From a phage: a DNA stretch of 64,000 bases. Under the pieces are notes generated by a model that saw nothing but the letters and a program-made list of their open reading frames with translations, was not told where the DNA came from and did no database searches. The first letter of the stretch is position 1; every line of letters starts with the position of its first letter. The stretch lies in assembly GCA_025611195.1 (NCBI GenBank), contig GCA_025611195.1_4718.2. One strand, written 5' to 3'. A program made the translations under genes and the position numbers. Below, piece after piece: positions 7,261 through 36,800 of the stretch.

Positions 7261-7280
7261 TAAGTAATATAGCCGTGAAA
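7261..7280 (-). promoter_or_regulatory. promoter-like motif, minus-strand TTTCACGGCTATATTACTTA
   Basis: 20-mer identical to 30572-30591; TATATTAC core 57 nt upstream of the HD-domain operon start; hairpin immediately downstream. Confidence 0.5.
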
Positions 7281-7360
7281 GGATTTGTGTTGGTCCGTTT
7301 CGATGCCCATCGTATTTTATGGATTGTCGAATGACGTCATTTTTAAGGGACATCCCCGAC

Positions 7361-7389
7361 CTCCTCCCCACACCTTTCCTGGGGAGGAG
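7361..7389 (+). terminator. stem-loop CTCCTCCCCA/TGGGGAGGAG followed by TTTTAT
   Basis: 10-bp inverted repeat with plus-strand U-rich tail in the helicase leader. Confidence 0.4.
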
Positions 7390-7423
7390 TTTTATCATAC
7401 TTTCTATTAATTCGAGCGCGATT

Positions 7424-9505
7424 ATGTTGGATAGAATCAATCGTTTAATGAACCGAATGACGGTTAAAAATCAGAGTAACAATACCGTGCATATCGGGGG
7501 TATCGATGCGTGGCGTCTTTCAGATGACATTCAGCGTATATGGGGTACCTCCCGATTTATGAAACACATGTTTCGTAATTTCTCTTCTAGTGGACTCAGT
7601 CTCCACAACTTTTACCTTCCCGATTTCGTTTATATTCTCGAAACGATCATCGAAGCAAAGAATACCCGTAGTAACAAACGCATGCTGAAACACCTTATCG
7701 AGATACTACTGCAGGAAACATGGTTGCAAAATACCACCATCGAGCAGCCTGCAATCCTCGATAAAGCACGCATGAACAAAATGCTAACGCTCTCTTTGTT
7801 CGATTATCAAGATGAGTTCATCGACATCTATAACCGTAATGTACCTAAGTATCGACTGAAAGGATACGTGTGTGCGATGGGTGCTGGTGCTGGTAAAACG
7901 ATCACAGCATTGGCATTAAGCGCCGCAATGAACGTCGATGTATTTGTGGTCTGCTGCCCTAAGAACACCATGCGTTCAGCATGGCAATCCGATGTAAACA
8001 AAGCCATCGTTGATCCTGCAACAGAAACCGCGTTCTGGTCGGATACAATGCCACCATCACAGCTGCAGAAAAGCGATAAATACTATTTTTTACATTACGA
8101 ATCGATGGGCTTATTAAACGATGTGATGATCAAGCATAAACGCACAGCGAAGCGCGTTCTTATTGTTGTTGACGAAAGCCATAACTTCAACGACAAGAAC
8201 AGCCAACGTTCCCAGCGACTGGTTGATCTTGTACAGACAATGCGTCAAACCATGAATGCGGATGTGCACGTCTTGTTTATGTCGGGTACGCCTGTTAAAC
8301 AGATGGGTTCTGAGATGATCCCATGTTTAGGTTGTATCGATCCGATGTTCCAAGGACAGGTGGTCGATAGCTTCAAAGCAATTTACGGTTTAACCAGCAG
8401 CCGTGCTAACGATATCCTCAGACATCGTCTTGGGTTCATGATGCATGTCGTACCTAAAGAGGCTTACCGTAAAACCCGTCCGGAAGTTCAGGACGTTTAC
8501 GTGAAGCTCCCTAACGGTAGCGATTATACCATCTCGAGCATTCGTGACGACATGGCGATATTTGTACGCGATCGGGCGAAGTATTACAAGGATAACTGGG
8601 GACATTACCGAAAGATTTTTGATGATGCCTTGGACTACTATCGTAAGACTATTCGTACCGACGGAGAACGTAAAGAGCTATCTCGATACGAATCGATTGT
8701 TGCGCGTTTCCAGAAAGGTTACGATCCCGTCAGAGACAAAGAAGATGCGATGTTCTGCAACGCGTTTGAAAAACGTTCCATCATGCCAGTTCTTCCTTCT
8801 GATTTAAGGGTTGCTTTCAAAGACGCCAAGAGCGTCATCAAGTACGTTGGGTTGAAAATTCAGGGTGAAGCGTTGGCGCGTGTTCTGGGCGCAGCGCGCA
8901 TTCGGTGTCATGTCGACATGGTGGAATACATCGACTTCGAAGAGTACATCAATAACGCCGAAGCCAAAGTGTTGATCTTCACATCGTACGTTCAGGTGGT
9001 TGAACGCGTCGATAACATGCTTCGTGATGCGGGCTTCTTACCGGAACCCATTTACGGGAAGACCAACAAAAACATCAACCAAATACTTGCCCGTCTACGC
9101 GACGATCCTGACAGCGGTCCCGCTATCGCAACATTTGATAGCTTAGCTGAAGGGGTTCCGATGCTGATGTGTAATGTGGGTCTTTTCCTGAACAACCCGT
9201 GGCGCTCATCCGATGAAATCCAAGCCATCAGCCGTCTCGATCGTGTAGGGCAAACGCAACCTGTTCGGATTTATCGTTTCATGTTAGATACAGGAAGCGA
9301 AGGTAACGTTTCTACACGTAGCCACGAAATCATGGAGTTAAGTCGGCAGCTTGTTGAAGAAATCACGGGCGTCAAATACGTGGTGAACAAGCAAGATGAT
9401 GTTAACTTGCAGGAAACGTTAGCGATGGAAGGATACGATCAATACGTTACCGTAAACACCTCGGAATACGATATTAAACCACGACCTGCGTTCTTGGAAT
9501 GGTAA
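7424..9505 (+). CDS. SF2 helicase (Snf2/DExH-like)
   Basis: Walker A GAGAGKT, DExH box VVDESHN, motif III SGTP, motif VI QAISRLDRVGQ; ATG at 7424 lies downstream of hairpin 7361-7389 (track start 7319 would include the hairpin). Confidence 0.7.
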   Translation: MLDRINRLMNRMTVKNQSNNTVHIGGIDAWRLSDDIQRIWGTSRFMKHMFRNFSSSGLSLHNFYLPDFVYILETIIEAKNTRSNKRMLKHLIEILLQETWLQNTTIEQPAILDKARMNKMLTLSLFDYQDEFIDIYNRNVPKYRLKGYVCAMGAGAGKTITALALSAAMNVDVFVVCCPKNTMRSAWQSDVNKAIVDPATETAFWSDTMPPSQLQKSDKYYFLHYESMGLLNDVMIKHKRTAKRVLIVVDESHNFNDKNSQRSQRLVDLVQTMRQTMNADVHVLFMSGTPVKQMGSEMIPCLGCIDPMFQGQVVDSFKAIYGLTSSRANDILRHRLGFMMHVVPKEAYRKTRPEVQDVYVKLPNGSDYTISSIRDDMAIFVRDRAKYYKDNWGHYRKIFDDALDYYRKTIRTDGERKELSRYESIVARFQKGYDPVRDKEDAMFCNAFEKRSIMPVLPSDLRVAFKDAKSVIKYVGLKIQGEALARVLGAARIRCHVDMVEYIDFEEYINNAEAKVLIFTSYVQVVERVDNMLRDAGFLPEPIYGKTNKNINQILARLRDDPDSGPAIATFDSLAEGVPMLMCNVGLFLNNPWRSSDEIQAISRLDRVGQTQPVRIYRFMLDTGSEGNVSTRSHEIMELSRQLVEEITGVKYVVNKQDDVNLQETLAMEGYDQYVTVNTSEYDIKPRPAFLEW

Positions 9506-9511
9506 TTAAGA

Positions 9512-12422: not shown

Positions 12423-13997
12423 TTACAATTCAAAATCTTCATCGATAACGCGCTGGGTAAGCACTTTGTCGCTGAAGAACTCCACCTTGCGCTGATGGTA
12501 TTTACGATGCGCTTCGATAGAAGTACATACCAGATACCAGAAGGTTGGCGTCATTCCTTCAAACTTCCCTTTCAGCTGACGCAGTCGCCCCAACACCTGA
12601 ATGTTACCGGTTCGTGACCCCATCGCTAACGTCATGAACGCCATCACCAAGTCAGGAAGGTCGATACCCGTACCTGCCGATTTCACCGTCGTAACGCTAA
12701 TATCGTTATCCAACAAGACCATGAAATCTTCTTCAGCCGTATAAGGACCGATCTCTAACTCAGGAATACGTTCACTAAGGTAATGCGACAACGACTTACA
12801 CATATCGACGGTTGCACAATACACCAGCATCTTCATACCTTCCTGATACTGGTTCATGAAACCTTTGATGATAACCGTATAGATGAAGTTAAAATACGCG
12901 AGTTTGAGTTGCTTGTTCTTCATGATAGACTGTTCGAATATCGTGTGAGAATAAGAACCCCCAAACCCTTTATATCTGACTTTATCTGTACTGCGTAGTC
13001 GATACGTCACGGCATTTACCGCAATGTATTTCTTGTATTCGCCTTTCGCATAACGGGCTTCTTTCGGATACATCAAATACAACATCCGCTCGATGAACGG
13101 ATCATCGGACACCGCCGTTGCTGACAGATAGATGATTTCCGGAATACTAGCGTAACACTTGACCTTAAACAAGAAATGCAATGCTTCATGGCACTCGTCA
13201 TGAATCAGAAGGCCTATGCCGGTCTTTTCCCAAAACTCAGCGGGATGGAAGGCATATGGCGCAACGCAGTTATTCTTCTCGTAGTCCGCAATATAACGTT
13301 GGAACATGTTCAAGGAGAACAATGCGATTTTGAAGTCGAGTTCGCCTTGTTCAACCAAGGTTTGAAACTCCAACATACTGTAACGAGGAATGTCAGGATG
13401 CGGTGGATCCTCCTTAGCGTTCCCGCGTATCTCGATAACATCCCCTGGTTCCATCCCGAAGAAGTTCAGTAGTGAGCTTCGCCAACCTGGCATGTATCTC
13501 GGCGACAGAATGATACCCGTCCGCACACCGCGTCGGAAGGTAATCTCCTGCGACATGGCCGTTTTTCCCGACCCCGTTTGAGCGGTGTTTAGGCTCATTC
13601 TGAAGGGGGTATCCTTACCCCCGTCCATGTACTCCAACCATTCTTGCTGATCTTCACGCCATGGGAACTTCCATTTCTTTACGAACTCCACTTCTTTACC
13701 TGGTGCCGGATCGTGGTAAACGATTTCCAACCACTCTTTTCGTATCCCTCGGGAAAAGATAAAATCCAAAAACGATTTCAACTGTTCGCGGAGTAAGTAT
13801 ACCTCACTATAATCGCTTCTTGCCGCGGCATACGTGTTTATGGTATCGGTAACCATTCTCCGTGTACGAGGGTCGCGCCGTTTCCTCAGATGCAAACAAC
13901 GGTCTCGAAGGTAATGGCCGATAAGATGGGCAAATCGAAGTCCGTATCCGCTCAGCCTCATGCCGTGCGAGAAGACATCGATACGAGCTAACTTCAT
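12423..13997 (-). CDS. SF2 DEAH-box helicase
   Basis: Walker A AQTGSGKT, DEAH-like box LIHDECHE, motif V TVKSAGTGIDLP, motif VI QVLGRLRQ. Confidence 0.65.
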   Translation of the reverse strand: MKLARIDVFSHGMRLSGYGLRFAHLIGHYLRDRCLHLRKRRDPRTRRMVTDTINTYAAARSDYSEVYLLREQLKSFLDFIFSRGIRKEWLEIVYHDPAPGKEVEFVKKWKFPWREDQQEWLEYMDGGKDTPFRMSLNTAQTGSGKTAMSQEITFRRGVRTGIILSPRYMPGWRSSLLNFFGMEPGDVIEIRGNAKEDPPHPDIPRYSMLEFQTLVEQGELDFKIALFSLNMFQRYIADYEKNNCVAPYAFHPAEFWEKTGIGLLIHDECHEALHFLFKVKCYASIPEIIYLSATAVSDDPFIERMLYLMYPKEARYAKGEYKKYIAVNAVTYRLRSTDKVRYKGFGGSYSHTIFEQSIMKNKQLKLAYFNFIYTVIIKGFMNQYQEGMKMLVYCATVDMCKSLSHYLSERIPELEIGPYTAEEDFMVLLDNDISVTTVKSAGTGIDLPDLVMAFMTLAMGSRTGNIQVLGRLRQLKGKFEGMTPTFWYLVCTSIEAHRKYHQRKVEFFSDKVLTQRVIDEDFEL

Positions 13998-16000
13998 AAC
14001 GTGAATACATCCTCCGGTTTAGGTTCTTTGCGCGGTAAAAGCATGTAGTCGATCGGATGATCCGGCTTCATGGTTGGGATATAACTGTTCGGGTTTTGGA
14101 ACGCATCCAGTTGCTCTTGGTGAGCGAACTTCATACTCAAGGAGCGCATGTTCATGTTCTTCTTGAAGGTGCTGAAGTATCGTGTTGTTCCCTGTTTCGG
14201 CATGCGATAATCTTTCGTGTGTGGCGAACGAATCATGCTGGCGTAGAGAATAACATCGAGATGCGAAAGGTTCATTCGCAGACGCTGTGCGCACAAGCGA
14301 TGCCAATAGTACAGCACGTTTGCAACTTCTTCCGGTGTTGCTTCGTCTTCCGAGAGGAACCCGGCACTGAAAGAACCTTTCCCGAATTTGAACTCACGTT
14401 CGATTTCTTTTGCGTATTCCATCATGTTTTTGTGGATTAACGGCATCTGGAATAACGTACGTGAATTGTCCCAATGTTTCAAGTCGAAAATCACAATCCC
14501 GTCAGACGTCACTTCCCAGCTATGGCGTTTAAGATAACGGATAAACGCTTTACTCGGTACAACAGGACGTCCGCAGAAATCGAAATTGACTTTGAGCTTA
14601 CGATAGCTTTCATCTTTCCTGTCGTAAATCTCCATATCGCAAAGCGTCATGTTAAACAGACGCTGTGGTATCAGCGAACTGATTTCTTCCGCTTCGGCTA
14701 CATCGTACAACATGTTCGCAAGACCTAACTTCATCTTAATCAGCACGTGTTTACCTTTCAGCTCACGTGCGAGTTTGATGTCGTTCATGTTCTGGCTGTA
14801 ACGAAGGATATGTTGATATTCCGGTGGGATTGGTGCTGTAGAGACCGTTGACGAACCGTCGTGGTGTTTGGTAGAAAGAATGTTCTGCGTTACCTGTTGC
14901 GAGCAGGTACGCGCTGCGCCATCGCCGACATTATCGGTTAATGCGAAGTTATGACTTAATTCACCATAACACGTTGTGCATACCCCAGCAGGATCGGGAT
15001 GATGACAATAGTTAACGGAGCGCATACGCACTGTGGTGCCGATCAATTCTTTCATATGTGGTTGTATCGCTACCAACGAACCGTCATCACGAATAATGAA
15101 TCGGCCGTGGAAGCCACGCAGGTCGGTCTCATCACGGATTGGCATCGGGATGGTCTCTCTACTACCACAATCACCAGGATGTAGTCGTTGCACAACCGCT
15201 GTCGCTATCTGAAGTTCACGACCGAAATATTCAGACTTTTTAATCTGCTCTTTGTTGAACAGCAACGATTTCGCCGCAGAACGACTTTCTTTCAAGCTGT
15301 CGGGAAGAGAGATCAAACCTGACGCGTACGACCGCATTACTGGATCACGGAATATCTCGGAGTTAATATCGGTCAAGAATCCACGCATCCCAATACACTG
15401 CAGCACCTGCCCAATCGAAACGTGTTCGGTTCTTACCGCACGTGCAATAGGGTTTGCATGTAATGTTTTATCGGTGCTCAGTACCTTTGTCAGTTTCTTG
15501 TATGCGCTTTCGATACCTTCGCGGGTGGGTTCCGCTTCAGCGATGATTTTCTTAACTTCGGGGTGTACGGTAATCTGATAAAAATCATCCGCACAAATAG
15601 TTGTTACGTATTCCTCCAACGCATACGTAAAGAAGTTATACACGTTGTTAAACATATCGAACAGTGCTTTCCAGAGAACCTCACGATTCTCTTGTGGGTA
15701 AGCATACATGCATTGACGATACGCTGCGCTTTGCAACGCTACCGATGAACCCGCTGTAAACTTACGTTTATCAACCAGGTTCTCTTTTGTCAATGGTGTC
15801 TCAGGATACATGCGATGTACAGACCAGTGCATGTAACTAAAGAAAATGCGTCGCGCACGTAATTCATGAACGCCATCGTCCATCTCGATATATACACGGT
15901 CATTAGGCTGTGCCCACTCGAATACCTCATCAACCGGCCAGTGCATAAGCTCGCGTGCCCTCACACGACGTTTCGTGGTGGTCGTCTGTGTTGTAGTCAT
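13994..16000 (-). CDS. multisubunit RNA polymerase beta-prime, C-terminal subunit
   Basis: RSVNYCHHPDPAGVCTTCYGELS..AARTCSQQVTQNILSTKHH aligns by eye to E. coli beta-prime VRSVVTCDTDFGVCAHCYG..AAQSIGEPGTQLTMRTFH. Confidence 0.55.
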   Translation of the reverse strand: MTTTQTTTTKRRVRARELMHWPVDEVFEWAQPNDRVYIEMDDGVHELRARRIFFSYMHWSVHRMYPETPLTKENLVDKRKFTAGSSVALQSAAYRQCMYAYPQENREVLWKALFDMFNNVYNFFTYALEEYVTTICADDFYQITVHPEVKKIIAEAEPTREGIESAYKKLTKVLSTDKTLHANPIARAVRTEHVSIGQVLQCIGMRGFLTDINSEIFRDPVMRSYASGLISLPDSLKESRSAAKSLLFNKEQIKKSEYFGRELQIATAVVQRLHPGDCGSRETIPMPIRDETDLRGFHGRFIIRDDGSLVAIQPHMKELIGTTVRMRSVNYCHHPDPAGVCTTCYGELSHNFALTDNVGDGAARTCSQQVTQNILSTKHHDGSSTVSTAPIPPEYQHILRYSQNMNDIKLARELKGKHVLIKMKLGLANMLYDVAEAEEISSLIPQRLFNMTLCDMEIYDRKDESYRKLKVNFDFCGRPVVPSKAFIRYLKRHSWEVTSDGIVIFDLKHWDNSRTLFQMPLIHKNMMEYAKEIEREFKFGKGSFSAGFLSEDEATPEEVANVLYYWHRLCAQRLRMNLSHLDVILYASMIRSPHTKDYRMPKQGTTRYFSTFKKNMNMRSLSMKFAHQEQLDAFQNPNSYIPTMKPDHPIDYMLLPRKEPKPEDVFTL

Positions 16001-16145
16001 TATTGCTTTCCGATTTAAATGGTTTTATCATACGGTTTACCAAATCCGTTGGACTTTACTATCGTTGTGATAGCATCGGGAATCCCTTCCCTTAGGTTAT
16101 GTAGGTGTTAATATATCTCCACTGCTGTCGTAAAGGTCAGCAGCA

Positions 16146-17528: not shown

Positions 17529-17606
17529 ACCAGGGATCCTCTTTAAGTCTTCACATTCTAGTGTTAAGCAGTTAAAATAAACCGTCCCTTTAATCAGCAT
17601 AAACAT

Positions 17607-17635
17607 CCTCCTCCTACCATGCGGGCAGGAGGAGG
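17607..17635 (-). terminator. stem-loop CCTCCTCCT/AGGAGGAGG
   Basis: 9-bp inverted repeat after the stop of 17647-18060. Confidence 0.45.
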
Positions 17636-17646
17636 CGTAATATGCA

Positions 17647-18060
17647 TCAGAAAGGTGTGCGATTCTTATATTCGAATAATGTCTGAAGGACACATCGTGT
17701 TAACGAGTTTTGTAATTCGATACGTCCTTGTTCTCCGAACAGATCCAACACCATCATCCCTTTTGCTGTTTTCTCTGCCACTTCTTCACAAATCTGTAAA
17801 TTGTACATGTCGTCATTGCCGAGTTCCTTTCGACCGATCGAACTGACACGCATCAACTCACCTTTACTATCGCGAACATCGGAGAATGCATCATAGACCG
17901 CATCGATGTTCGCAGAACGCGTCAAACCCTCCGCTTCGCGCCACTCTCGATATGTACCATCAAGCGTTTGTTCCTCGCCCGAGGTTGTTGATTCGCTGTT
18001 GGTGGTTGGGCGAATTAAATGGGGTGTTATCATCGCGATCACGCTGTCGTAATGGTCCAT
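17647..18060 (-). CDS. small acidic protein, paralog family member 3
   Basis: MMVLDLFGEQG and NLQICEEVAEK motifs resemble the neighbours. Confidence 0.5.
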   Translation of the reverse strand: MDHYDSVIAMITPHLIRPTTNSESTTSGEEQTLDGTYREWREAEGLTRSANIDAVYDAFSDVRDSKGELMRVSSIGRKELGNDDMYNLQICEEVAEKTAKGMMVLDLFGEQGRIELQNSLTRCVLQTLFEYKNRTPF

Positions 18061-20240: not shown

Positions 20241-20271
20241 AGGACTTCCTATTATCGAATTGAGGTACGTC

Positions 20272-20625: not shown

Positions 20626-20630
20626 GATAA

Positions 20631-20659
20631 CCCTCCCACAGCGTAAAGCGTAGGGAGGG
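20631..20659. terminator. stem-loop between convergent genes (CCCTCCC/GGGAGGG)
   Basis: Between the ends of 20272-20625 (+) and 20691-21971 (-). Confidence 0.5.
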
Positions 20660-22020: not shown

Positions 22021-22026
22021 TATGGA

Positions 22027-23613: not shown

Positions 23614-23614
23614 T

Positions 23615-25201: not shown

Positions 25202-25293
25202 AACAACCTCTTTTCGCGGTTCCCTGTTAAAACGTCTTCGGCGACGTCTACCACAAAGGTAACATTTATGTCGCCTCTATGACTTTGTTCATA

Positions 25294-25313
25294 GAGGTAA
25301 TATAAGCGTGAAT
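25294..25313 (-). promoter_or_regulatory. promoter-like motif, minus-strand ATTCACGCTTATATTACCTC
   Basis: Same consensus; about 95 nt upstream of gene start 25201; abuts hairpin 25274-25297. Confidence 0.45.
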
Positions 25314-25443
25314 AATTTTGGATTCCGGCTGAGTTATCGCTCAGCATGCAAGGCATCCCGCCGAAGCGAGACACCTTGCACTAACGGAAGATATTCGCGT
25401 TACCTTCTGAGTCTTCGATTCAGAATGCGAAGCTGAAGCATTA

Positions 25444-26232: not shown

Positions 26233-26305
26233 TTTCAGCCTCGTTACGTAGTGTGAATCAATTTCTGGTTCAGATGATAGTTAATATTAGTTAAAAATTA
26301 CAGCC

Positions 26306-27103
26306 TCAGCGGAACATGTCCAACAGAAAACGTTTTGCGAAGGGGTCGCGTAACTGGTTGACGCCAAAGCGTGTACGGTCTTCCGTTGTTAACGGATTCC
26401 ACTGACTCTGTTTCGCAAGATCTAACAGCATCCTTTTTATTTTCACCGGCCCGCTGTTAAACTGTACGGCTTGGTCGCCGAACGTTCCCAATGTCATCTT
26501 TGTAAATGGGAGGTTCGCAACCTCTGGACGATCTCCACCAGTAAGTTTGGTCGACCACTGATGTTTTCGTTTCAAAGTTCCGGTATGACTCTCTACCAAA
26601 ATAAGTTCACCAAAACCGGTTCTTGCCAACAAGTCAGAAACATAGTGCGTAGTGATATACGACGTTTTGGTTATCGTGGGTAATTTACAATCCATCGATT
26701 CGATATTGGGGAGTCGATCTACAGACGCCATCAACCCACGATAAAGTGTGGCGAGTCCTTTTTGTTTTTCGGTGTGTGGCTCCTTGTGTATAGCGTGCGG
26801 ATAAACACGCTTTATTGACGCATAGGTTGGCGCATATATCCGCAAACGAATATGGGGAACGAGTTCATTCACCAACTGCCTTAGCTGCAGCAACTCGTTT
26901 TGAAAATCCCCCGTTATCATCGATAATGGTAATTTATGCTGTTCGACGTCTTCAAAGCTTTCAACAAAATTGCGCGCTAAAGTACGCAGGTTGAACAACC
27001 AATCCATCGGCGTTTCTGGCTGTTGCTGCACGGCTGATAATGTTGCTGACGTCCCCACCGATAAAGGATAATCACCTAACGTGCGGGCGTACATATCGCT
27101 CAT
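26306..27103 (-). CDS. hypothetical protein (265 aa)
   Basis: ATG at 27103 with AAGGAG RBS; track start 27139 would overlap the upstream gene. Confidence 0.55.
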   Translation of the reverse strand: MSDMYARTLGDYPLSVGTSATLSAVQQQPETPMDWLFNLRTLARNFVESFEDVEQHKLPLSMITGDFQNELLQLRQLVNELVPHIRLRIYAPTYASIKRVYPHAIHKEPHTEKQKGLATLYRGLMASVDRLPNIESMDCKLPTITKTSYITTHYVSDLLARTGFGELILVESHTGTLKRKHQWSTKLTGGDRPEVANLPFTKMTLGTFGDQAVQFNSGPVKIKRMLLDLAKQSQWNPLTTEDRTRFGVNQLRDPFAKRFLLDMFR

Positions 27104-27122
27104 ACCCCACAACTCCTTCTTA

Positions 27123-28265
27123 TCATGGCAACGTATCAAGCCAAGCAGAAACCTTTAAGGCATCAACGTTCGGGTATTTATTACGGATGCGTTCGACCAG
27201 CAAACGCTTAACGTTGTCCTTTGTCAAGTCCCCGCCTTTCTCGATAACGTTATTGACAAAACTGTTCTTTAATAACGACTGGTTGTTCTTGGCGTCCGTT
27301 TTAATTGTCCAGATAAAACCTGGATACAAAGAAGGGATAGAACGAAACGTTTTCGCTGCGTCGTCTTCCTTATCACAACGTATTCGGATGTGATCGCCCT
27401 TCTTCAATGAAGCCAATTCCCGTTCCAATACACGAATGATTTCATCTCCAACAAGACCGTGCAGTTTTATCGTCTTGTAGACATCTGCTTTCTTGTTCTC
27501 AACAAATTCCCATTGGTCGTTAAACGATTCTGTTAACGTATAACGGAGGTACCCCTTTGGACCTTCTTCGCCATGCGACAAGCGACCGAACGAACCGCCA
27601 ACCATGATACGTCCTTTCTGGGATTGTAAGTGGATATGCCCACTCACGACCCACCCTTGGGTCTTCTCTACCATTGCGTTATACGCATCGCTGCTATGAA
27701 CACATGTCGCTTTTAACGCTTCTGGTGGAAGCTGATATTCAAACGCGCCGTGCATCAGAATGAAGTCCGGCGATCCCTTCTCATCAATAAGTCGGTTCAC
27801 AGCCGACAACGTCACATCCGGATCGTGGCTGTAGTTATCTGGAAGATAGAGCACTTTTAAACCAAAGTCTTCATCAACCATGCAGAGATCATCGTAATAA
27901 CGAACTTTCGCTCCTATCTCCATGACCTCGTTCTGTTCAACGAACCACTGGCTTTGCTTCTGGTCATGTAAATTGGTACCTTCAAGAAAGATCAACGTAA
28001 TATCGTGTTTTCTCGCATACCGTAACAACCAGGTACCCCAGGCACGAACAGCAACCACGTCACTCGTTACAAATGTCGTAATACGATCGAAGACATCACC
28101 ACTGAATGTAATCACGTCAAGCAGCGCAGGATCTTCTTTTGTGATATAATAACGTAGCTGGCTAATCAGATTCACTGTCGGTGTTTGACGATGGATAAAG
28201 TGAATATCCGACAAGTTGATTCCTCGTAATACCCCAGGCGTTTTATTTCGACTGAAGTCTCGCAT
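27123..28265 (-). CDS. Mre11/SbcD-like nuclease (calcineurin-like phosphoesterase)
   Basis: Ordered motifs NLSDIHF, SGDVFD, EGTNLHD, MHGAFE, SGHIH match metallophosphoesterase motifs I-V. Confidence 0.55.
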   Translation of the reverse strand: MRDFSRNKTPGVLRGINLSDIHFIHRQTPTVNLISQLRYYITKEDPALLDVITFSGDVFDRITTFVTSDVVAVRAWGTWLLRYARKHDITLIFLEGTNLHDQKQSQWFVEQNEVMEIGAKVRYYDDLCMVDEDFGLKVLYLPDNYSHDPDVTLSAVNRLIDEKGSPDFILMHGAFEYQLPPEALKATCVHSSDAYNAMVEKTQGWVVSGHIHLQSQKGRIMVGGSFGRLSHGEEGPKGYLRYTLTESFNDQWEFVENKKADVYKTIKLHGLVGDEIIRVLERELASLKKGDHIRIRCDKEDDAAKTFRSIPSLYPGFIWTIKTDAKNNQSLLKNSFVNNVIEKGGDLTKDNVKRLLVERIRNKYPNVDALKVSAWLDTLP

Positions 28266-29047
28266 CAGAATTCCTCTAAGTTACTGCTGCTAATAGCCCC
28301 CGTCGTAGACGACACGTTTTTACTGCTCGCCGACGCTGTTGTTGAAGAAGTTCTGGCTAGATTCAATCCGTTTAATAACCCACGCTCTTTTACCGTACGA
28401 CGCGAACCATCACGAACGTCGTAAAGGGGTACGTTATAATGGTCAAAAATCCGAAGCCATTGCACGTAATCAGCAACAACATGGTCTTTGCTTTCATTCG
28501 GAGCAAAGCGATCAAGCTGATGGTCAACGTAAGCTTTAGCGCTTTCAGGATTGAAGTTATACTGTCGACGTGCTTTATCCACCATCGCGAGGAAACACGT
28601 GTTGGGGTCACGATTGATGTATGAACGCGTCCGGATAAAGATAGCCGGTACCGTAAACAGAACCTTGTTGTTATTCCCGTCAGTGACAATATTAACGGCA
28701 CGATGTGGTTGACCTGCTATCTTACACCAATCGTGAACAATGGTACTGTTACTCAGCATCTCCGCGTATTCAGGATCCTGAGAAAACATACCCGCGAACG
28801 GATACAAGAAATGTTTAACAAACAGCGATTCGGGCAGGATGTTGGGACGCGTCATCTCCTGTAAACCTTTTCGTAGAAGCTCGCTGTTGTCTACCAGCTC
28901 CTGCCACATGTCCGGTCGTGTTTTCGGGATGGACGGATCCTGAGCGCGACGAATGCGTTCTTCCTCATTTACAACCACTACCCCAGCCGGATACCCCAAT
29001 AAATCCGTTCCTTCGCTAACGTTGCTGTTAGTTTGGCGCGCCTTCAT
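28265..29047 (-). CDS. hypothetical protein with Ser/Thr-rich C-terminus (260 aa)
   Basis: ORF track. Confidence 0.55.
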   Translation of the reverse strand: MKARQTNSNVSEGTDLLGYPAGVVVVNEEERIRRAQDPSIPKTRPDMWQELVDNSELLRKGLQEMTRPNILPESLFVKHFLYPFAGMFSQDPEYAEMLSNSTIVHDWCKIAGQPHRAVNIVTDGNNNKVLFTVPAIFIRTRSYINRDPNTCFLAMVDKARRQYNFNPESAKAYVDHQLDRFAPNESKDHVVADYVQWLRIFDHYNVPLYDVRDGSRRTVKERGLLNGLNLARTSSTTASASSKNVSSTTGAISSSNLEEF

Positions 29048-29435
29048 TTACTTCCTCCTGCCACTTGACAAAATTACCACGCTCGGATCGCAGAACACCA
29101 CCCAGATCGTACGATATACCTTTCTCTGTGACAATCCCACCAATCTGGAGATCGACACGTTCCGTCGTCGGATCGATATACTTGACACGGACTTTCAATT
29201 CCACACGATCGTAATAACGCATTAAATAATCATACAACATCCGGTATGTCGCATCTTCCAATTTGGGTGCGCTATACTGCGATGTTGCAATGAGGTACGG
29301 TAGTGAAACGATGGAACCTTGATAGCAATACGACTGGGAATAATTCGATATTGCGAAATTGGTCATTAACCCATCCAGCTTTTTTCCCGACGCGGTTAAA
29401 AAGCTCGACAGCCCAGGTAACGGATTCGATGCCAT
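29028..29435 (-). CDS. hypothetical protein (135 aa)
   Basis: ORF track. Confidence 0.55.
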   Translation of the reverse strand: MASNPLPGLSSFLTASGKKLDGLMTNFAISNYSQSYCYQGSIVSLPYLIATSQYSAPKLEDATYRMLYDYLMRYYDRVELKVRVKYIDPTTERVDLQIGGIVTEKGISYDLGGVLRSERGNFVKWQEEVNEGAPN

Positions 29436-29448
29436 GAGGAACTCCTCT

Positions 29449-29898
29449 TTAAGCGTAATTCATTCCAACCAATCTATCGTAGTTAGGCATATGCCCTAAC
29501 TTCAGTTCGACAGGCACGGATACATTGGTACGCGGTGCGTAAAATGTTCGCGTATGCATATCGATATACCCACAGTCCAAATAAACAATATCAGACAACT
29601 CTGCCGGATGTTTAGGTGTGGGAATCTTTAGTCGATTATAACACTCAAGCTGCCACCAGGCATGAAAAAAGTTATTGTAGGCGTACGATTTACTGTTGGC
29701 AACTTTAAGTCCGTAGACAACCCATAACGTCGCCATGAAGTTGGTTGCGTTAATTCGCATCGGTTGTTCATTATTGAGCATGTGCGTGTAGGTAAACAGC
29801 GGTGTGTTACCATCGCCGAAACGTCCGACCAGGGTATTGTTCGTACGTTCGACCTCAAAGGAAAAATGCTGGCTGCTATTGCCATCAAAATGGATCAT
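29449..29898 (-). CDS. hypothetical protein (149 aa)
   Basis: ORF track. Confidence 0.55.
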   Translation of the reverse strand: MIHFDGNSSQHFSFEVERTNNTLVGRFGDGNTPLFTYTHMLNNEQPMRINATNFMATLWVVYGLKVANSKSYAYNNFFHAWWQLECYNRLKIPTPKHPAELSDIVYLDCGYIDMHTRTFYAPRTNVSVPVELKLGHMPNYDRLVGMNYA

Positions 29899-29973
29899 TC
29901 TGTTCTCCTCAAGCTTTTCATTTCATAGAGTGGTGGAAATTCGTAGAAAGTTACAAAAATAAAAAGAATGGGT

Positions 29974-30004
29974 AGTCCCTCCCCACCCGAAGGTAGGGAG
30001 GGAC
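29974..30004 (-). terminator. stem-loop GTCCCTCCC/GGGAGGGAC
   Basis: 9-bp inverted repeat after the stop of 30016-30480. Confidence 0.45.
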
Positions 30005-30015
30005 CACAGATGTAT

Positions 30016-30480
30016 TTAAACCAATGCCGCGATAACGTCGTTAACATTACGACCGCGCAACTCTGCCGCCAAACGAATAACTTCATCCAGGGAACGGTTT
30101 GTACGAATCTTAGCTACTTTCCAATTTTCAGGATACTGTTCGAAGTTAAGTAACCAAGTCATTACCTTTGCTTGTTCCACACCGTTGAGTTTGATTGTCG
30201 TGCGCGGATTGGCTTTGAACCACTTCTTGCTCAGCTGTGCCATACGGCGAACAGGGTAAGCGTAAGCGCGAGTCCAATCTTTGGACAGATTGTCGAGTAA
30301 CTCACGGTAGCTGCTATCGTAGTCTTTGTTGATACGACGTAATAACCAGTTGGCGGTCATCTGATAGAGTTTATCATCTTCACGTAACCGCATCCCTGCT
30401 ACTGCTAAATAAACGATAAGACCTGCACCCATGATGAGAGACAGGATAAACAGAACTTGGGTTTCTTGTGCTAAAGTCAT
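30016..30480 (-). CDS. membrane protein with one N-terminal transmembrane helix
   Basis: Hydrophobic stretch VLFILSLIMGAGLIVYLAVAG; first gene after promoter motif 30572-30591. Confidence 0.55.
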   Translation of the reverse strand: MTLAQETQVLFILSLIMGAGLIVYLAVAGMRLREDDKLYQMTANWLLRRINKDYDSSYRELLDNLSKDWTRAYAYPVRRMAQLSKKWFKANPRTTIKLNGVEQAKVMTWLLNFEQYPENWKVAKIRTNRSLDEVIRLAAELRGRNVNDVIAALV

Positions 30481-30571
30481 TTTTACTATCCTCGGATTTC
30501 GTTAGGATTTGATTTCCAATATAAGGACAATGTGATATGCCTTATACAGTCGATTGATGTTGTACATCACT

Positions 30572-30591
30572 TAAGTAATATAGCCGTGAAA
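30572..30591 (-). promoter_or_regulatory. promoter-like motif, minus-strand TTTCACGGCTATATTACTTA
   Basis: Identical 20-mer; 92 nt upstream of membrane-protein gene start 30480. Confidence 0.5.
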
Positions 30592-30600
30592 AATGTTGGA

Positions 30601-31416
30601 TTAACGTGTTCTCCTATCACGATGCGTATACGACTGAAGACCGATGTCCATATGCGGTAACGTCAGCGTCTGCCAGATCTGTCGTGCGTAGCGATCGAGT
30701 GTATGGTCGTCAGTAACACAATCGACTGGTTCGATGAGGTGAGTCGTATACTGGCTTTTCTCGGAGAAAGGTTCGATGTTAGCGGTGTCCCCTAATCCGC
30801 TTTTCACCGTGAAGACGAGACGGGTAATTATCATCGCCTTATGCTGCTGTTCATTATAGCGAAGGCTACGATATACAGCATAGCTCCCCCCTTTTAGGCT
30901 TCGGGTATAACGAAGGTCGGAGGTCGTCTCGGAAATCTGATACAACATCCAATCCAACGTATCACGCCAGTACGCATCATCCACATCAGGAACCGTGATG
31001 CCATAACGCGTAGGCAGCAGTTCTAAAAGCAGTTTATAAAGTCCACGACGCAGACCATGCTCTTCTGTTTCAGACAAACCGTTTCCAACGTAACGTGAGA
31101 TACGCGTACGTAAATACGTACGGATGAACATATTTGTCATCAGTGATTTCGCGCTACTACTGTTATCCTCAAAGCGATCAACACTGAAACTCGTTTCAAT
31201 CAGCTGCCCATTAAAGTACAATGCGGCAACATACATCGCATTACTGCTATCTCGTTCAATGTTTAAACGCCCGCAGATATTGGCTGCGTCGTTCATGGTA
31301 AATTCTAACTTATCGTGTTCGATACGGTAAATAATATCCTCTTGGGTTGCTAAGCTCGCAATGCGACGATAACCCGGAGAAGTGCGTTTTACACCCATGA
31401 TTGTCCTCGTTTTCAA
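30601..31416 (-). CDS. hypothetical protein (271 aa)
   Basis: ORF track. Confidence 0.55.
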   Translation of the reverse strand: MKTRTIMGVKRTSPGYRRIASLATQEDIIYRIEHDKLEFTMNDAANICGRLNIERDSSNAMYVAALYFNGQLIETSFSVDRFEDNSSSAKSLMTNMFIRTYLRTRISRYVGNGLSETEEHGLRRGLYKLLLELLPTRYGITVPDVDDAYWRDTLDWMLYQISETTSDLRYTRSLKGGSYAVYRSLRYNEQQHKAMIITRLVFTVKSGLGDTANIEPFSEKSQYTTHLIEPVDCVTDDHTLDRYARQIWQTLTLPHMDIGLQSYTHRDRRTR

Positions 31417-31438
31417 TTTAAGATTGCGTGCGGCATAG

Positions 31439-31465
31439 ACCCTCCCCGCCTTATGCAGGGAGGGT
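31439..31465 (-). terminator. stem-loop ACCCTCCCC/GGGAGGGT
   Basis: Inverted repeat between 31480-32118 and 30601-31416. Confidence 0.4.
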
Positions 31466-31479
31466 AGCCATTAAATGGA

Positions 31480-32118
31480 TTAACCTAATTTACCACCGGC
31501 GATATTGGTGAAATCTTCGCCATCAGGAACTTGCAGTAGAATACGTGCCATGTCCCAGTTGGTTAATGTGATTGCTTTATCATCGATACTCAGTTCTGGT
31601 AGGTCGAGTTCATGATCATCAAACTCGTAGGAAATACTCCACGTTTCATCTGTTTTAGGATCTGTCATCAATACACCGTCTGTCACACGCATGTAGTCCG
31701 GATGCAGTTCATTACTGAACGTACTGAACGGATCGGTGTAACATTCAGCATACCCTTCGATCTGCTGACGCTGTGCCTTCGTACGTAATTCAGGGCATGC
31801 CATAATCAGTTGTCGAGATATGCCGTTTGCAGCACGGAAGTCTTCCACGGTGTTACATGGCATAACCACATCGTCATGGAAGATGTTCTCCGATTGTCTC
31901 AACAGCGTCTTACGGAGTTCAGCATAGTTTATCTGATTGAACGCATCGAACGTTGCTAACGATTCAGCGTAAAAATGCTTTACGTGTTCGCTTGCGCCGC
32001 CGAGGCTATTCATCAACTTGTGACCATACTCCATGAAGCTTTTATCGAGACCGGAGGACATTTCTCCGAACCTCAGTGCACGATAACTGTCTCGTCCACC
32101 TGTAAATATTTGCGCCAT
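31480..32118 (-). CDS. hypothetical protein (212 aa)
   Basis: ATG preceded by AAAGGAGGA RBS. Confidence 0.6.
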   Translation of the reverse strand: MAQIFTGGRDSYRALRFGEMSSGLDKSFMEYGHKLMNSLGGASEHVKHFYAESLATFDAFNQINYAELRKTLLRQSENIFHDDVVMPCNTVEDFRAANGISRQLIMACPELRTKAQRQQIEGYAECYTDPFSTFSNELHPDYMRVTDGVLMTDPKTDETWSISYEFDDHELDLPELSIDDKAITLTNWDMARILLQVPDGEDFTNIAGGKLG

Positions 32119-32133
32119 TACAGGCGTCCTCCT

Positions 32134-34723
32134 TTAGCAATGGTTGTTAGTTGCTTCTATTTCATCAAGATACGGTTCTACGTCATCGCCCTCCACGAAT
32201 TCGTTGAACCAACAGTCAATGGTAGAAATAACCGGTGACTGGTGTTCACATTTCTTAGATACCTTAAAAGGTACGTTATTATCCATCATACCGAGTTCGG
32301 GTCGAAAACGCCCGAAATGTTTCGCAGTCCAAATGTCTGGGACGATATGGTTGTTCATCGTGGTGTTCAGCATGAGTCGCTACCTCATACCCGCAGCTTT
32401 ACCTGCAGCTTCCGGTGTTACCGGAATGTCCAGAATACATCTTATCCATATTCCAAATGGAACGTAGGACTTCCGCGCTGGATCTCGCTTGAGACCACGT
32501 ATTCGTTGAACGTTCTCCTGAACGGAGCTTCGCTGCTGATCGAACATTGTCGTGTACGGTAGGCATCCCCGAAGGGATTGTCATTGAAGCCGCGTACATC
32601 CGCTACCTTGTTTCTACCTTATCGGTTCCTCTTACGAGGCGTAGCGGCCTTAGCCCTTCCCAGCAATTCACGGAATCCAAGCTCTTCCTTTCGGAAGGCA
32701 GGGCCTATGATTAAGCATCCCCGTCGCTGTTATCGACTATATCTTCATCCTCGTTGCGAGGAGTCTCCCGTTTGGGTCTGTGTTTAACAGAGCCTACTCT
32801 ACTCAACATCGCGTCTTTCGATAGTCTGTGAGCACACATCTTAACGAACATTCGTGGATTCCTAAACAGGTGAACGTTCTTGTTGAGATGCTTCGCTGCG
32901 GATTATTCCCGTCCTACCTCTTTTACCGTACCCAGTTCATTACGCTGGCCCTCATCTATGTCACCATGATGAGTTGGTGTGTAGTCCGATTACAGAAACT
33001 TCCCGTCAATTAGAGAGTTTTAACTACGTTCCTGTTACCAGAAACCAGATCCCGACGGTATCAATAAATCAACGTAAGTTATTGATTTAATTGAAAAACT
33101 GAAATCTGCATTATCTAAATCTTCAGTATGGTTCGCTACTCCATACCCGTACCTCATGTACTGCTTACGTCTTTCACGTAAGGATAGACTATATCTTTCA
33201 CCCTCAGCATTATCTGGTCGGGGCTCCCATTTCGGCGGTCAGATGACCGGTGGTTTCCCACGCCGCTTGGCCCTAACGCCCGTAAGCGATAGTCGTTGAG
33301 CACATCTCCGTTCTGGAGACTTCGCTGCGGATTCCCCAATCCTTGCCGCTTTTACCGTACCTGAATGATTAGTTCAGCCCCACGCTCTGTTCCCAGGCAT
33401 GGTTGGTGGACGAGGCTCTAAGTAGGTTCCCGCATTAGAGAGTTCCTCGTAACAACATTTCTGCGTTACTGGGCCTAACGACCCTTTCAAGATCATCACG
33501 CTTAACCCGATGGTGTTATCCTGCGGATCGCGTTTAACCTTGGTGATTTCAAGACATTGGTTACTGCTTCGGTCAAGTGATGGGTTTCGAACAAAGCCGC
33601 ACACAATCCCATCGAACGGTGTATCAGCAATAAGCTCATCATGCAGCTCGCTCATCATCGGATGATAATTACGGACATGTTCCGCAACGAACGCACGTGC
33701 TGCTCTCGGTGAATAACCGCGATGGAATAACTTGGATTGGATATGTTCTTTATTGGTTAAAGTAAATGGTGCGTATGGGAAATGCAGATGATAATAACGA
33801 TGGTTCGCTGTTATCGAACTGATTACGGTACGCGTGGTGAATGGATGTAATGTACCTAATATGTTTTTACGCGTGATACCTTTCTTCTTACCGATGAACT
33901 CATCGAAAATCGCCGCGTGGTATTGCAGCAGCTTCAATTGCACTTTCGCCATCCAGTTTTCTTTCTTTCTGGCGCTCAAAGGTGTTGTTGGATGATAGAT
34001 ACTATTCAGTGTACCAATAGCATCGATCGCACCTTCCATTTTGCTATCTGCATAACGGCCGGTCGGTGTATTTTCGATAACGAACATCATGGCCGCAGGA
34101 AAGCTGATATACTGACTGAAGAACTTATCACGATGGATACGGATGAATTCTCGTAGCGTGTCAACTTTCTCTGTGTTCTTCGGTCCACGTAATGTGGGTC
34201 CTTTATACAAGATCTCCATGATGCGATCGAAGTTCTGTATAAAGCTATTTACACCACGCCGTATCCCGAATACATCAAATTGCTGCTCCAGATAGTTCTT
34301 GAGTTCAATGGGTCGTTTTACATTTGGACGGTAACTGGCATCAATGAGCCACGTCATCGTTTCGAAGCTTTTGATATTCAACTCGCTTGCCAGCACGAGA
34401 TGGACCAACGGGTTAATGAACGCATCGATTCCTTCAGGGACACGCGCCCAGACCGTCGAACGAATCTCCTGTTCTGCTGGGTAGGTTACAACCGTTTTAC
34501 AGTTTGGACACACCGTGCCGAGCAACTCACCGCGATTGTAGAAACCACAACCACATTGTGGCGTGATATCCAACGTATCGCTGGAGTAAACACGGGTGAT
34601 AAAACTGTTTAATTTCTTCTTCTCTTCGACGACTTTTGTATCGTAATCGTTCAACAAAATCGGCGTAAAGGGAAGTTCTGCGAGCTGTCTATCGAAACTC
34701 ACGATATCGAGCATGATGGCCAT
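32134..34723 (-). CDS. multisubunit RNA polymerase beta-prime, N-terminal subunit; proposed 4 exons (34723-33490, 33120-33102, 32726-32714, 32367-32134) split by three group I introns
   Basis: Exon 1 has the Zn-finger (CGCG..CPNC) and RNPSLDRSSNQCLEI (cf NRAPTLHRLGIQAFEP); micro-exons encode LDNADF and DGDA; last exon NTTMNNHIVP (cf QMAVHVP); exon lengths 1234+19+13+234 = 1500 nt keep frame; unspliced ORF ends in intron read-through. Confidence 0.5.
32368..32713 (-). other. group I intron C (ORF-less, about 346 nt)
   Basis: P AATTGCTGGGAAGGG with Q ATCAGCAGCGAAG (compensatory GCTG/CAGC), R CAACGAATACG with S AAGATGTATTC (compensatory P7 change); 3' tail homologous to intron A. Confidence 0.45.
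32727..33101 (-). other. group I intron B (ORF-less, about 375 nt; 3' domain unusually short)
   Basis: P AATTGACGGGAAG, Q AATCCGCAGCGAAG, R GTGCTCACAGACTATCG, S GAAGATATAGTCGATAAC; only about 8 nt between S and the proposed 3' splice G. Confidence 0.4.
33121..33489 (-). other. group I intron A (ORF-less, about 369 nt)
   Basis: Minus-strand elements P AATGCGGGAACC, Q GAATCCGCAGCGAAGTC, R GTGCTCAACGACTATCGC, S AAAGATATAGTCTATCC in correct order; possible P1 pairing exon GAUCU with GGGUC; boundaries approximate. Confidence 0.5.
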
Positions 34724-34765
34724 GGGACATCTCCTACAAATGAAAAAGAACGTTAGGACGTATAA

Positions 34766-34789
34766 GGGAGGGAGGTTGCCCTCCCTCCC
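34766..34789 (-). terminator. stem-loop GGGAGGGAGG/CCTCCCTCCC between chimallin candidate and beta-prime N gene
   Basis: 10-bp perfect inverted repeat; may set expression ratio between the two genes. Confidence 0.45.
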
Positions 34790-34815
34790 GTCAGATTACA
34801 TCGAACGTTCTTCCA

Positions 34816-36711
34816 TTAGAACAGGTTGAATGCTCCACCCATGTTGTTACCACCAACATTCGGACGATCGCTACGTGCATAGATGTTGCCGGAGATGTTA
34901 CCCAGACCACGAGCACGTGCTGCTGTGTTACCACGAACGGCGGTACCTGCCAGATGCTGGATGTTCTCAGGACGGATGGTGAAGCCAGCTTCGGCAGCCG
35001 CTTCAATCAATGCCGCAAGCGCATTCGGTTCGAAATCGTAACGCATTGCCCAACCGGTTTGTTCCCAGCTACCAGACAGAACGCGATCGATGATTTCGTG
35101 ACGAGCAACAACACGCTGAGACATCGACATATCGGTACGGTCGAAGCTGTCTTCCCAAGCTTCTACGGTATCCGGGTTAGTGATGTTCATCATGTACAGA
35201 TCGTCCATATCACGAATATCGTGACGGTTACCGTCCTGGTGGTTGTAGTGACCCAGCGGGATACGGTTACCAGTAGCGTAGACTAACGGTTGGCCGTATT
35301 GATATTTCTTGCTGAAGCAACCCAGGGTGGTATCATCGAATGCACGATAGAGTGCTTTATAGCCTTCGGAGATTTCTTGAACTTTACCGTCAACGTTGCC
35401 CGTAAAGATCTTCTCAGCTGCAGGGATCATACGCAGCAACCAGCTATATTCGCCTTCTTCCGGTACGTCGATAGAAATCAGCAGAGACGGATACAGTACC
35501 TGTTGCAGGAACTTGTAAATCTGCTCGTTGGTTTGAGTAGACAGATCCAGCGGTGCAGTAACTTCCGGATCCAGTACCATCGCCAGAGCACCCGGGTTAT
35601 GCGGACCAATACCACGAGCAGCGTTGCTGATTAAAGACTGCGCCCACGCCATACCGCTGTTCAGCGTAGCGATGGTACCAATCAGACCCAGCACAAACGT
35701 GTTCGGAGTGAACGCATCCAGCTCCAGCGGGTAGGCGCTGGTCATCACGTAACGCGGTTGGTACTGTACAGTCGGCGGTACCGGATAACCGTTAACCAGA
35801 ACAGGACCTTGGTTGAAGGTCGGGTTCTGCGGGCTGTAGGTCAGGTCAATGTAACCAGTGGTTGCGACCAGGCGCTGTTGACTATCGTAATCGCTCATCG
35901 CTTGACGGATACGGTTAGAGATAGTTACAGTGATGTCAGAACGCACTGGGTTACCGACGATATCGCTGTCCTGCATACCGCTGGTGTTGTACTGAACGCT
36001 GCTGATCGGCTGATCGCTTGCCATCATGCCCAGGTTGAACTGCGGCAGACCCAGTTTATCGCCGAGACGGATTTCGATCGCGGTTTGGATTGCGTTATCT
36101 GCAGCAGACAGCAGGGTGGTTGCCAGATGCGCAGATTCAGCAGTGATTTCATTGGTCACCACAGCCAGACCGGCGATACGAACAGTACCGTTAGCCTTAC
36201 CGCCAATAGCCGCATACATTGCCGCCATGACTTCGTTGATGAACGTGCCGTTCAGGTTATCAACCCAGGTACGCGGTACCAGAATGTTACCATGCGGACC
36301 TTGTTCTTCACGACGCGGCAGCGGAGCCAAACCGGCAACCAGCGGAAGCACATAACCGAAGAAGTGGTTATGGTCACCAACTTTTGCACCGCTCATAACA
36401 ACCAGGGTCGGATACGGTACACTGTACTGGTTAGGATCGACGGTCACCATGATGAAGTCGTCTTTGAACCCTTTATCTTCCAGTTCTTTCTCCATCAGAC
36501 GACGGAGATTCAGTACCTGCTCGGAGCCAGTATTACGGCTAATACGACGGCTCAGTGTACGGTTGATCGTACGCATCGTATGAGTTACTTTAGGCTGGCC
36601 AGCAAAATCTGCAGCGGTTTCCAGCGCCTCATCAGCACGTTGTGCGGTGCGGGTTTCAGCTGCACGAATTTCTACATTATCGTTACCGTTATTACGTACG
36701 TCTAAGCCCAT
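34816..36711 (-). CDS. chimallin (phage nucleus shell protein) candidate
   Basis: 631 aa, the size recalled for known chimallins; directly upstream of the beta-prime N gene as recalled for phiKZ gp54-gp55; strong preferred-codon bias; first gene after promoter motif 36781-36800; no sequence comparison possible. Confidence 0.4.
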   Translation of the reverse strand: MGLDVRNNGNDNVEIRAAETRTAQRADEALETAADFAGQPKVTHTMRTINRTLSRRISRNTGSEQVLNLRRLMEKELEDKGFKDDFIMVTVDPNQYSVPYPTLVVMSGAKVGDHNHFFGYVLPLVAGLAPLPRREEQGPHGNILVPRTWVDNLNGTFINEVMAAMYAAIGGKANGTVRIAGLAVVTNEITAESAHLATTLLSAADNAIQTAIEIRLGDKLGLPQFNLGMMASDQPISSVQYNTSGMQDSDIVGNPVRSDITVTISNRIRQAMSDYDSQQRLVATTGYIDLTYSPQNPTFNQGPVLVNGYPVPPTVQYQPRYVMTSAYPLELDAFTPNTFVLGLIGTIATLNSGMAWAQSLISNAARGIGPHNPGALAMVLDPEVTAPLDLSTQTNEQIYKFLQQVLYPSLLISIDVPEEGEYSWLLRMIPAAEKIFTGNVDGKVQEISEGYKALYRAFDDTTLGCFSKKYQYGQPLVYATGNRIPLGHYNHQDGNRHDIRDMDDLYMMNITNPDTVEAWEDSFDRTDMSMSQRVVARHEIIDRVLSGSWEQTGWAMRYDFEPNALAALIEAAAEAGFTIRPENIQHLAGTAVRGNTAARARGLGNISGNIYARSDRPNVGGNNMGGAFNLF

Positions 36712-36780
36712 TTGGGATTCCTCTTTTCTTAAACTTTATTAAATGACGTCATTGAATCAGCTTCTACTCGCTCATTCACC

Positions 36781-36800
36781 TAGGTAATATAACCCTGAAA
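36781..36800 (-). promoter_or_regulatory. promoter-like motif, minus-strand TTTCAGGGTTATATTACCTA
   Basis: Same consensus; 70 nt upstream of the chimallin candidate start. Confidence 0.5.

Follow-up and report, generated by a model that had tools for sequence, protein, structure and literature searches.

We analyzed a stretch of 64,000 nt of phage DNA (NCBI GenBank assembly GCA_025611195.1, contig GCA_025611195.1_4718.2; the whole stretch is hereafter called the window) and found four copies of a conserved motif of about 40 nt upstream of minus-strand genes, which are very probably early promoters read by the injected virion RNA polymerase (vRNAP). The window is colinear with positions 135524-200192 of Escherichia phage vB_EcoM_Goslar (NC_048170.1; hereafter Goslar) at 93-96% identity, with 99.4% of the window covered by the alignment. 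Goslar is a nucleus-forming jumbo phage of the Chimalliviridae with E. coli as host, and the source phage is a close relative of it. The motif shares its core, TATATTAC, with the early promoters of phage phiKZ, and we concluded that it represents a known class of promoter in a lineage-specific form. The vRNAP as reader, the exact start base and early timing in this phage are predictions that we draw from sequence comparison.

The motif and its four copies in the window

The 20-mer TAAGTAATATAGCCGTGAAA occurs identically at 7261-7280 and 30572-30591, with three mismatches at 36781-36800, and a fourth copy at 25294-25313 shares the core and 15 of 20 positions; no match to the 20-mer was found in 100 shuffles. 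The two identical copies and two variants described in an earlier note on this DNA were thus reproduced. The octamer GTAATATA, which reads TATATTAC on the minus strand, is present four times in the window, each time on the plus strand. Over about 40 nt the consensus is tAat.cAaaa..TTTCAcG.cTAyATTACcTa.gTGA. On the coding strand an A-rich stretch comes first, followed by TTTCACG, two variable bases, TAYATTAC, and YT; three further variable bases then precede an invariant T-G. Reviews describe an AT-rich element near -10 ahead of the early operons in every jumbo phage that encodes a polymerase, with transcription starting 6 nt after this element, as in AAATATATATTAT-(6N)-G+1 of Bacillus phage AR9. 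Since this rule sets a 6-nt spacing, the predicted start is the invariant G. Relative to this base, the A-rich stretch would lie at about -38 to -25, TTTCACG at about -23 to -17, the TAYATTAC core at -14 to -7, YT at -6 and -5, and the invariant T-G at -1 and +1.

The motif was scored with a 42-nt matrix against thirty simulated genomes of 237 kb, in which the mean best score was 8 bits and the highest 21 bits. The four window sites scored 36-56 bits, and no other strong site was found in the window. P1 (7254-7295, minus strand) is an exact 20-mer copy with its core at 7264-7271, a predicted start at G 7257 and a score of 44.3 bits. P2 (25287-25328, minus) has its core at 25297-25304, a predicted start at G 25290 and 36.3 bits (its Goslar ortholog scores 44.6 bits). 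P3 (30565-30606, minus), the second exact copy, has its core at 30575-30582, a predicted start at G 30568 and 55.8 bits. P4 (36774-36815, minus), with its core at 36784-36791, a predicted start at G 36777 and 48.2 bits, stands ahead of the gene for chimallin, the phage-nucleus shell protein. The Goslar equivalents of the four predicted starts are 142786, 160777, 166055, and 172964.

All four copies are on the minus strand in intergenic gaps. The earlier note had placed them 55-100 nt upstream of the first genes of four operons. The strand holds and the measured distances from the 20-mer to the next minus-strand ATG are close to that range (53 nt for the site at 7261, 92 nt at 25294, 91 nt at 30572, and 69 nt at 36781), and only two of the sites are at operon heads: those at 7261 and 36781 are at divergent junctions and head operons, and those at 25294 and 30572 are internal promoters because they are preceded by co-directional genes.

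Whole-genome scan of Goslar and conservation

The scan for position and strand bias that the earlier note had proposed gave a strongly non-random result in the complete Goslar genome. Twelve sites scored 44-56 bits, and the next best scored 16.8 bits. All 12 lie on the minus strand, in the orientation of the gene below. Annotated intergenic DNA, 7.1% of the genome, contains 11 of the 12 cores (P about 3e-12); the remaining core falls within an annotated 62-aa open reading frame (ORF) that is probably spurious. TAYATTAC is present at every one of these sites, and T-G is invariant at the sixth and seventh bases after the core, a spacing identical to that in AR9 and phiKZ. The predicted starts in Goslar are at 2553, 15053, 43252, 49718, 86691, 113783, 142786, 160777, 166055, 172964, 201930, and 226681, with a further one at 187625 for the weaker P5 described below. 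The predicted leaders are 25-205 nt long. The motif is carried by only 12-14 of the 72 Goslar gaps that precede minus-strand genes and are at least 60 nt long, as would be expected of a single temporal class. None of the Goslar sites is ahead of a recognizable late gene such as that for the major head, tail sheath, or terminase, although gp040 adjoins the head gene on its downstream side.

The promoters are conserved far better than their surroundings. Comparison of five promoter windows (P1-P4 and the weaker P5 described below) with Goslar revealed a single substitution, which falls at a non-conserved position, plus one indel over 200 nt, vs. 5.3% divergence elsewhere, in coding and other intergenic DNA alike. 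At P1, 40 nt are identical in Goslar and the leader just downstream has diverged; P4 is identical in three other Goslar-like genomes. Within Goslar, up to 34 bases are identical between copies, as at 2567 and 166069. Four IMG/VR contigs of 214-229 kb, without nucleotide similarity to Goslar and with 26-47% protein identity to it, carry TTTCACGTCTATATTACTTGGGTGA. Because this distant clade has it, the TTTCACG element predates the Goslar genus. The four contigs represent a clade of uncultivated jumbo phages with a GC content of about 0.51 and promoters of the TTTCACG..TATATTAC type, whose predicted transcript begins with a stem-loop.

Comparison with phiKZ and other phages with an injected polymerase

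The earlier note had cited an AT-rich phiKZ early consensus with the core TATATTAC, and this is borne out by the "consensus early promoter" tatattaaaaaaaatttaagatgTATATTACaaatgtG given in the supplement of a 2025 preprint. The chimallin promoter of the window, ATATTGAAAAAAATTTCAGGGTTATATTACCTAGGTG, aligns with tatattaaaaaaaatttaagatgTATATTACaaatgtG without gaps and is identical at 29 of 37 positions; the other copies keep the TTT and the spacing, and lack the A-tract. The region upstream of phiKZ gp54 (chimallin) reads TGAAAAAAATTTGAGATTTATATTACTAAATTGA, with the core 80 nt from the ATG as in the window, and an early-promoter motif has been reported at the primary start site of gp54. The chimallin proteins of phiKZ and the window phage are only about 24% identical. 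The phiKZ match, the gp54 element and the Goslar scan together support the assignment to the injected vRNAP that the earlier note had put forward.

The cross-genus comparison was made on chimallin upstream regions from annotated phage records. TATAT(T/C)AC-(6N)-G was found ahead of chimallin in nine of 13 genera checked (the window phage, phiKZ, PhiPA3, RAY, Eowyn, Noxifer, RSL2, SNUABM_37, and Psa21), and FLC9 and RP12 have a CATAT(C/T)AC variant there. An element equivalent to P4 is present in nine further genera, eight of them with the (6N)-G spacing, and in seven genera, the window phage included, the core is 72-80 nt from the ATG. No such element was found in the chimallin upstream regions of LucasX and Bacillus phage AgentSmith. 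A chimallin homology search for related loci recovered Goslar-like contigs only. A scan of viral contigs with a phiKZ-style pattern yielded mostly chance matches and was excluded from the statistics.

The likeness to phiKZ extends to the identical core, the 6-nt spacer to G, an A-tract followed by TTT upstream, the position ahead of chimallin and the injected multisubunit polymerase. The Goslar-type element differs in that most copies have a AATCCAACA-like sequence instead of the A-tract, that GC-containing TTTCACG(G/A)C stands where phiKZ has TTTAAGATG, that a third of the copies have TACATTAC as the core, and that YT is conserved after it. AR9, which also injects a multisubunit polymerase, has an AT-rich element that ends in ATATTA(T/C) and is followed by 6 nt and G; however, AR9 is not a chimallivirus and has uracil DNA, and its element is longer, purely AT and devoid of a TTTCACG-like upstream part.

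Published work on Goslar is consistent with early use of P4. The virions contain five vRNAP subunits (gp78, gp196, gp205, gp207, and gp210). The chimallin gene chmA is transcribed at 5 min after infection and is still transcribed in infections arrested at the vesicle stage, in which the vRNAP colocalizes with phage DNA. A chmA start site has been mapped within 91 nt of the ATG.

Several points weigh against the assignment. The 12-14 promoters are few compared with 28-32 in phiKZ, and about 175 Goslar genes are detected at 5 min, which implies that early transcripts are very long or that there are further, undetected early promoters. TTTCACG is not AT-rich, and the phiKZ consensus contains nothing that corresponds to it exactly. 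Our literature search found no biochemical or structural study of promoter recognition by a vRNAP.

Alternative explanations

Three other explanations were weighed against vRNAP promoters. Host sigma-70 promoters, with TATATT read as the -10 box, are extremely improbable. TATATT does resemble TATAAT and the sites are upstream of genes, but there is no -35-like hexamer at 16-18 nt (TTTCAC is 3 nt and TTGAAA 13-14 nt from the core), the conserved bases run well past a -10 box to ACYT and T-G, and transcription in the phiKZ family is independent of the host RNA polymerase. A sigma-70 consensus scan of 20001-40000 gave no minus-strand site at P2-P4, and sigma-70-like sites were depleted in this segment (19 vs. 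30.7 +/- 5.7 in shuffles). The depletion would also fit a phage that avoids host transcription. Use of the motif by the non-virion RNA polymerase in middle or late transcription, or by both enzymes, has slightly more in its favor and is still very unlikely. It would agree with the early and middle start sites of phiKZ gp54 and with the expression of many Goslar genes throughout infection. The phiKZ promoters of that enzyme look different, however, with TATG at the late start and a weak TACT/A-rich signal near -22 to -24 for middle promoters; the conserved bases of the window motif differ from these, no TATG is present at the predicted start, and the motif fits the early consensus over 37 nt.

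The copies might instead be mainly recombination cassettes like the promoter-early stem-loop (PeSL) elements documented in T4-type phages, or binding sites of a phage regulator, with only incidental promoter activity; we give this very little credence. PeSLs are likewise repeated early promoters with a stem-loop, scattered over a large phage genome, and both the up to 34 identical bases shared between copies and the indel at the 3' edge of P2, which resembles a segment at another copy, could be read in this way. But PeSLs rely on host sigma-70 promoters, lie on either side of variable genes and bring about shuffling. The window shows no shuffling relative to Goslar, and no gene has been gained or lost beside any copy in the nearly complete alignment. 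The strict orientation, the fixed distance to the start codon, and the conservation across genera whose chimallins are about 24% identical suit a promoter better. A cassette role is in any case compatible with promoter function and the two are not exclusive.

A hairpin promoter of the N4 type was considered and rejected. In coliphage N4 a single-subunit polymerase recognizes a conserved DNA hairpin upstream of the start. The two systems are alike in having early promoters, an injected phage polymerase and an associated hairpin. In the window and in Goslar, however, the conserved part is linear sequence, and the hairpins vary in sequence, are weak or absent at about half of the sites, and are located at the predicted start or beyond it.

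Weaker look-alikes of the motif

The earlier note listed four weaker look-alikes, which we scored with a half-matrix from core to start (null maximum 16.6 bits). The one it gave as 51442-51460 is probably a fifth, weaker early promoter. This site, P5 (51430-51471, minus), has the core TACATTAC at 51440-51447 (Goslar 187639) and a predicted start at G 51433. It scored 23.3 bits with the half-matrix and 14.3 bits with the full matrix, in that the core and the start half match well and the upstream half is divergent; the site is identical in Goslar. The look-alike given as 16106-16119 is equivocal: the site (16086-16127, minus; core TACATAAC at 16096-16103) is correctly placed and oriented in the gap ahead of the gene for the non-virion polymerase beta subunit, and its scores of 16.8 bits (full matrix) and 15.4 bits (half-matrix) are both within the null range. 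Those at 60949-60958 and 17637-17643 are chance matches with 7 of 8 core bases and no matrix support, the latter also with a base other than G at the start position.

Between the gp170 and gp169 homologs, the minus strand of 17600-17660 carries CATATTAC followed by a 9-bp GC-rich hairpin (CCTCCTCCT...AGGAGGAGG). This element does not match the promoter matrix, and the hairpin may be a terminator.

Stem-loops at the predicted start

The earlier note stated that each motif is followed by a hairpin. A modest enrichment was found, and universality was not. At P3, the stem-loop GATGTacaACATC (30556-30568, minus) pairs GATGT with ACATC, or TGATGT with ACATCA with the one-pair extension, and starts at the predicted first transcribed base. 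At P2 there is a 9-bp inverted repeat at 25274-25297 (arms 25289-25297 and 25274-25282), at 7271 a 5-bp repeat ATTAC/GTAAT that overlaps the core, and at 36791 an imperfect stem. Stems of at least 5 bp from predicted +1 or +2 were present at 8 of 12 Goslar sites vs. 23% of control positions (P=0.0015). A stricter, folding-based test gave 6 of 13 sites vs. 19% (P=0.025), and applied to the chimallin promoters of eight genera it gave 6 of 8 vs. 34% (P=0.02). The enrichment was seen only in tests for a stem start at +1 to +3, and the first 36 nt did not have a significantly low folding energy (P=0.1).

Clear stems begin exactly at predicted +1 at several sites, for example at P3 and at Goslar 49732 (GATAACAG/CTGTTATC), 86705 (GATAAGA/TCTTATC) and 15067, and their sequences differ between promoters. 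The inverted repeats at P2, P5 and Goslar 226695 extend across the predicted start, so that the RNA stem would be unable to form fully. We concluded that the hairpin is a frequent tendency, secondary to the motif and not a defining part of it. Its function is most likely to protect the mRNA 5' end from decay, as far as can be inferred.

P2 differs from its Goslar counterpart by a 38-nt insertion (25257-25294, minus) directly after TATATTACCT at the 3' edge of the core, flanked by a TTACCT repeat. The insertion is present in the window and in the Goslar-like IMG/VR contig 3300011560_000001 and is absent in Goslar, in which the only segment resembling it follows the gp200 promoter. It carries one arm of the 9-bp inverted repeat and preserves the 6-nt spacing to G, and the P2 leader with the insertion has a strong RNA fold (z = -3.1). 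One possibility is that the insertion is a small leader module, either mobile or duplicated.

The P3 gene is immediately followed by a strong intrinsic-terminator-like hairpin (29972-30007, minus) with a 16-bp stem and a T-rich tail. The P3 gene encodes a product of 154 aa with an N-terminal hydrophobic helix, and since the terminator-like hairpin follows it, P3 would be a one-gene early unit.

Palindromes near the early promoters

The chimallin leader contains the perfect palindrome AATGACGTCATT at 36742-36753, 31-42 nt upstream of the ATG. A second exact copy, at 7330-7341, is in the divergent gap beside a helicase gene, some 75-85 nt upstream of where P1 is predicted to start. These are the only exact copies in the window, both within about 85 nt of an early promoter; 0.3 copies would be expected by chance with one mismatch allowed, and two exact copies are far rarer. 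The same two copies are present in Goslar.

A perfect palindrome of 12-16 nt stands 25-52 nt before the chimallin ATG in nine of 13 chimallivirus genera, vs. an empirical chance of 3.7% per 80 nt. The sequences differ: TTCTTGATCAAGAA in phiKZ and Psa21, TACTTGATCAAGTA in PhiPA3, ACATTAGCTAATGT in RAY, TGTTCGCGCGAACA in LucasX, CAATCGCGATTG in SNUABM_37, ACACACTCGAGTGTGT in FLC9, and GCTTTGCAAAGC in RP12. In Goslar as a whole, intergenic DNA holds 13 of the 88 perfect palindromes that are 12 nt or longer, twice the number expected from its share of 7.1%. Examples are at 45685-45696, 65117-65132, 79480-79497, and 172929-172940. Several are 11-30 nt before the ATGs of abundant proteins, among them the major head protein gp041, the inner-body protein gp058 and gp067, and chimallin also has one before its ATG. 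The gp058 palindrome CACATTAGCTAATGTG contains the RAY chimallin palindrome. Among the results listed in a literature search, no paper joined "chimallin" and "palindrome", and we found no description of this element.

Stem-loops at +1 were seen at Goslar sites, in the distant 214-229-kb clade, and at the chimallin promoters of six of eight genera. As a tentative idea, the early promoter may belong to a larger conserved control module, of which it would be only one half, with the +1 stem-loop and the chimallin-leader palindrome as further parts. The palindrome could be a site with two-fold symmetry, for example an operator for a dimeric regulator, the start region of the second polymerase, or an element in RNA stability, dimerization or vesicle export.

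Genes downstream of the promoters and the intron region

P1 precedes the homolog of gp159 (6521-7207, minus, ATG 7207), a protein with an HD domain in Pfam, whose gene starts a long operon reaching the window start. P2 is directly downstream of the ChmC homolog and precedes the gp175 homolog (23615-25201, minus, ATG 25201). The gp182 homolog below P3 (30016-30480, minus, ATG 30480) is a small membrane-anchored protein. Below P4 are the gp246 homolog, chimallin (34816-36711, minus, ATG 36711), and the non-virion RNA polymerase beta' gene (33374-34723, minus); P4 would drive chimallin and probably the beta' gene as well. The gp225 homolog (minus, ATG 51381) is below P5. In a Pfam scan of the four non-chimallin first genes and the beta' ORF, the HD domain was the only one detected, in one of the five proteins. 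The non-virion polymerase beta gene is at 13994-16000 (minus). The genes for the five virion polymerase subunits are outside the window, and because those subunits are gp78, gp196, gp205, gp207, and gp210, the polymerase genes in the window (gp165, gp171, and gp247 homologs) belong to the second, non-virion enzyme. The promoters would drive the first genes needed: chimallin and a second-polymerase subunit, the operon headed by the HD-domain phosphohydrolase gene, and several small proteins of unknown function.

The sole unaligned block between the window and Goslar is an intron region. Rfam gave no match in the window at the gathering threshold. Two or three sub-threshold group I intron matches (46.9, 29.6, and 16.7 bits vs. 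a gathering score of 50) were found on the minus strand of 32471-33501, where the non-virion polymerase beta' ORF ends or beyond that point. The window has no homing-endonuclease ORF in this region, and Goslar has one annotated intron and an HNH gene there. Positions 33115-33482 do not align to Goslar, and a stretch of 88 nt at about 33246-33333 matches phage Av-05 at 84%.

Implications for nucleus-forming phages

The results provide a usable early-promoter consensus and predicted starts for the Goslar lineage, the E. coli model of nucleus-forming phages, for which our literature search found no published consensus. The consensus early promoter of phiKZ already drives selection markers in phage transposon mutagenesis. 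The palindrome observation may be more novel than the promoter itself. The site list marks the Goslar genes that are likely to be first after injection, among them the gene of a small membrane-anchored protein that forms a unit of its own. That the chimallin promoters are nearly identical, despite 24% identity of the chimallins, suggests that the injected polymerase tightly constrains its promoter.

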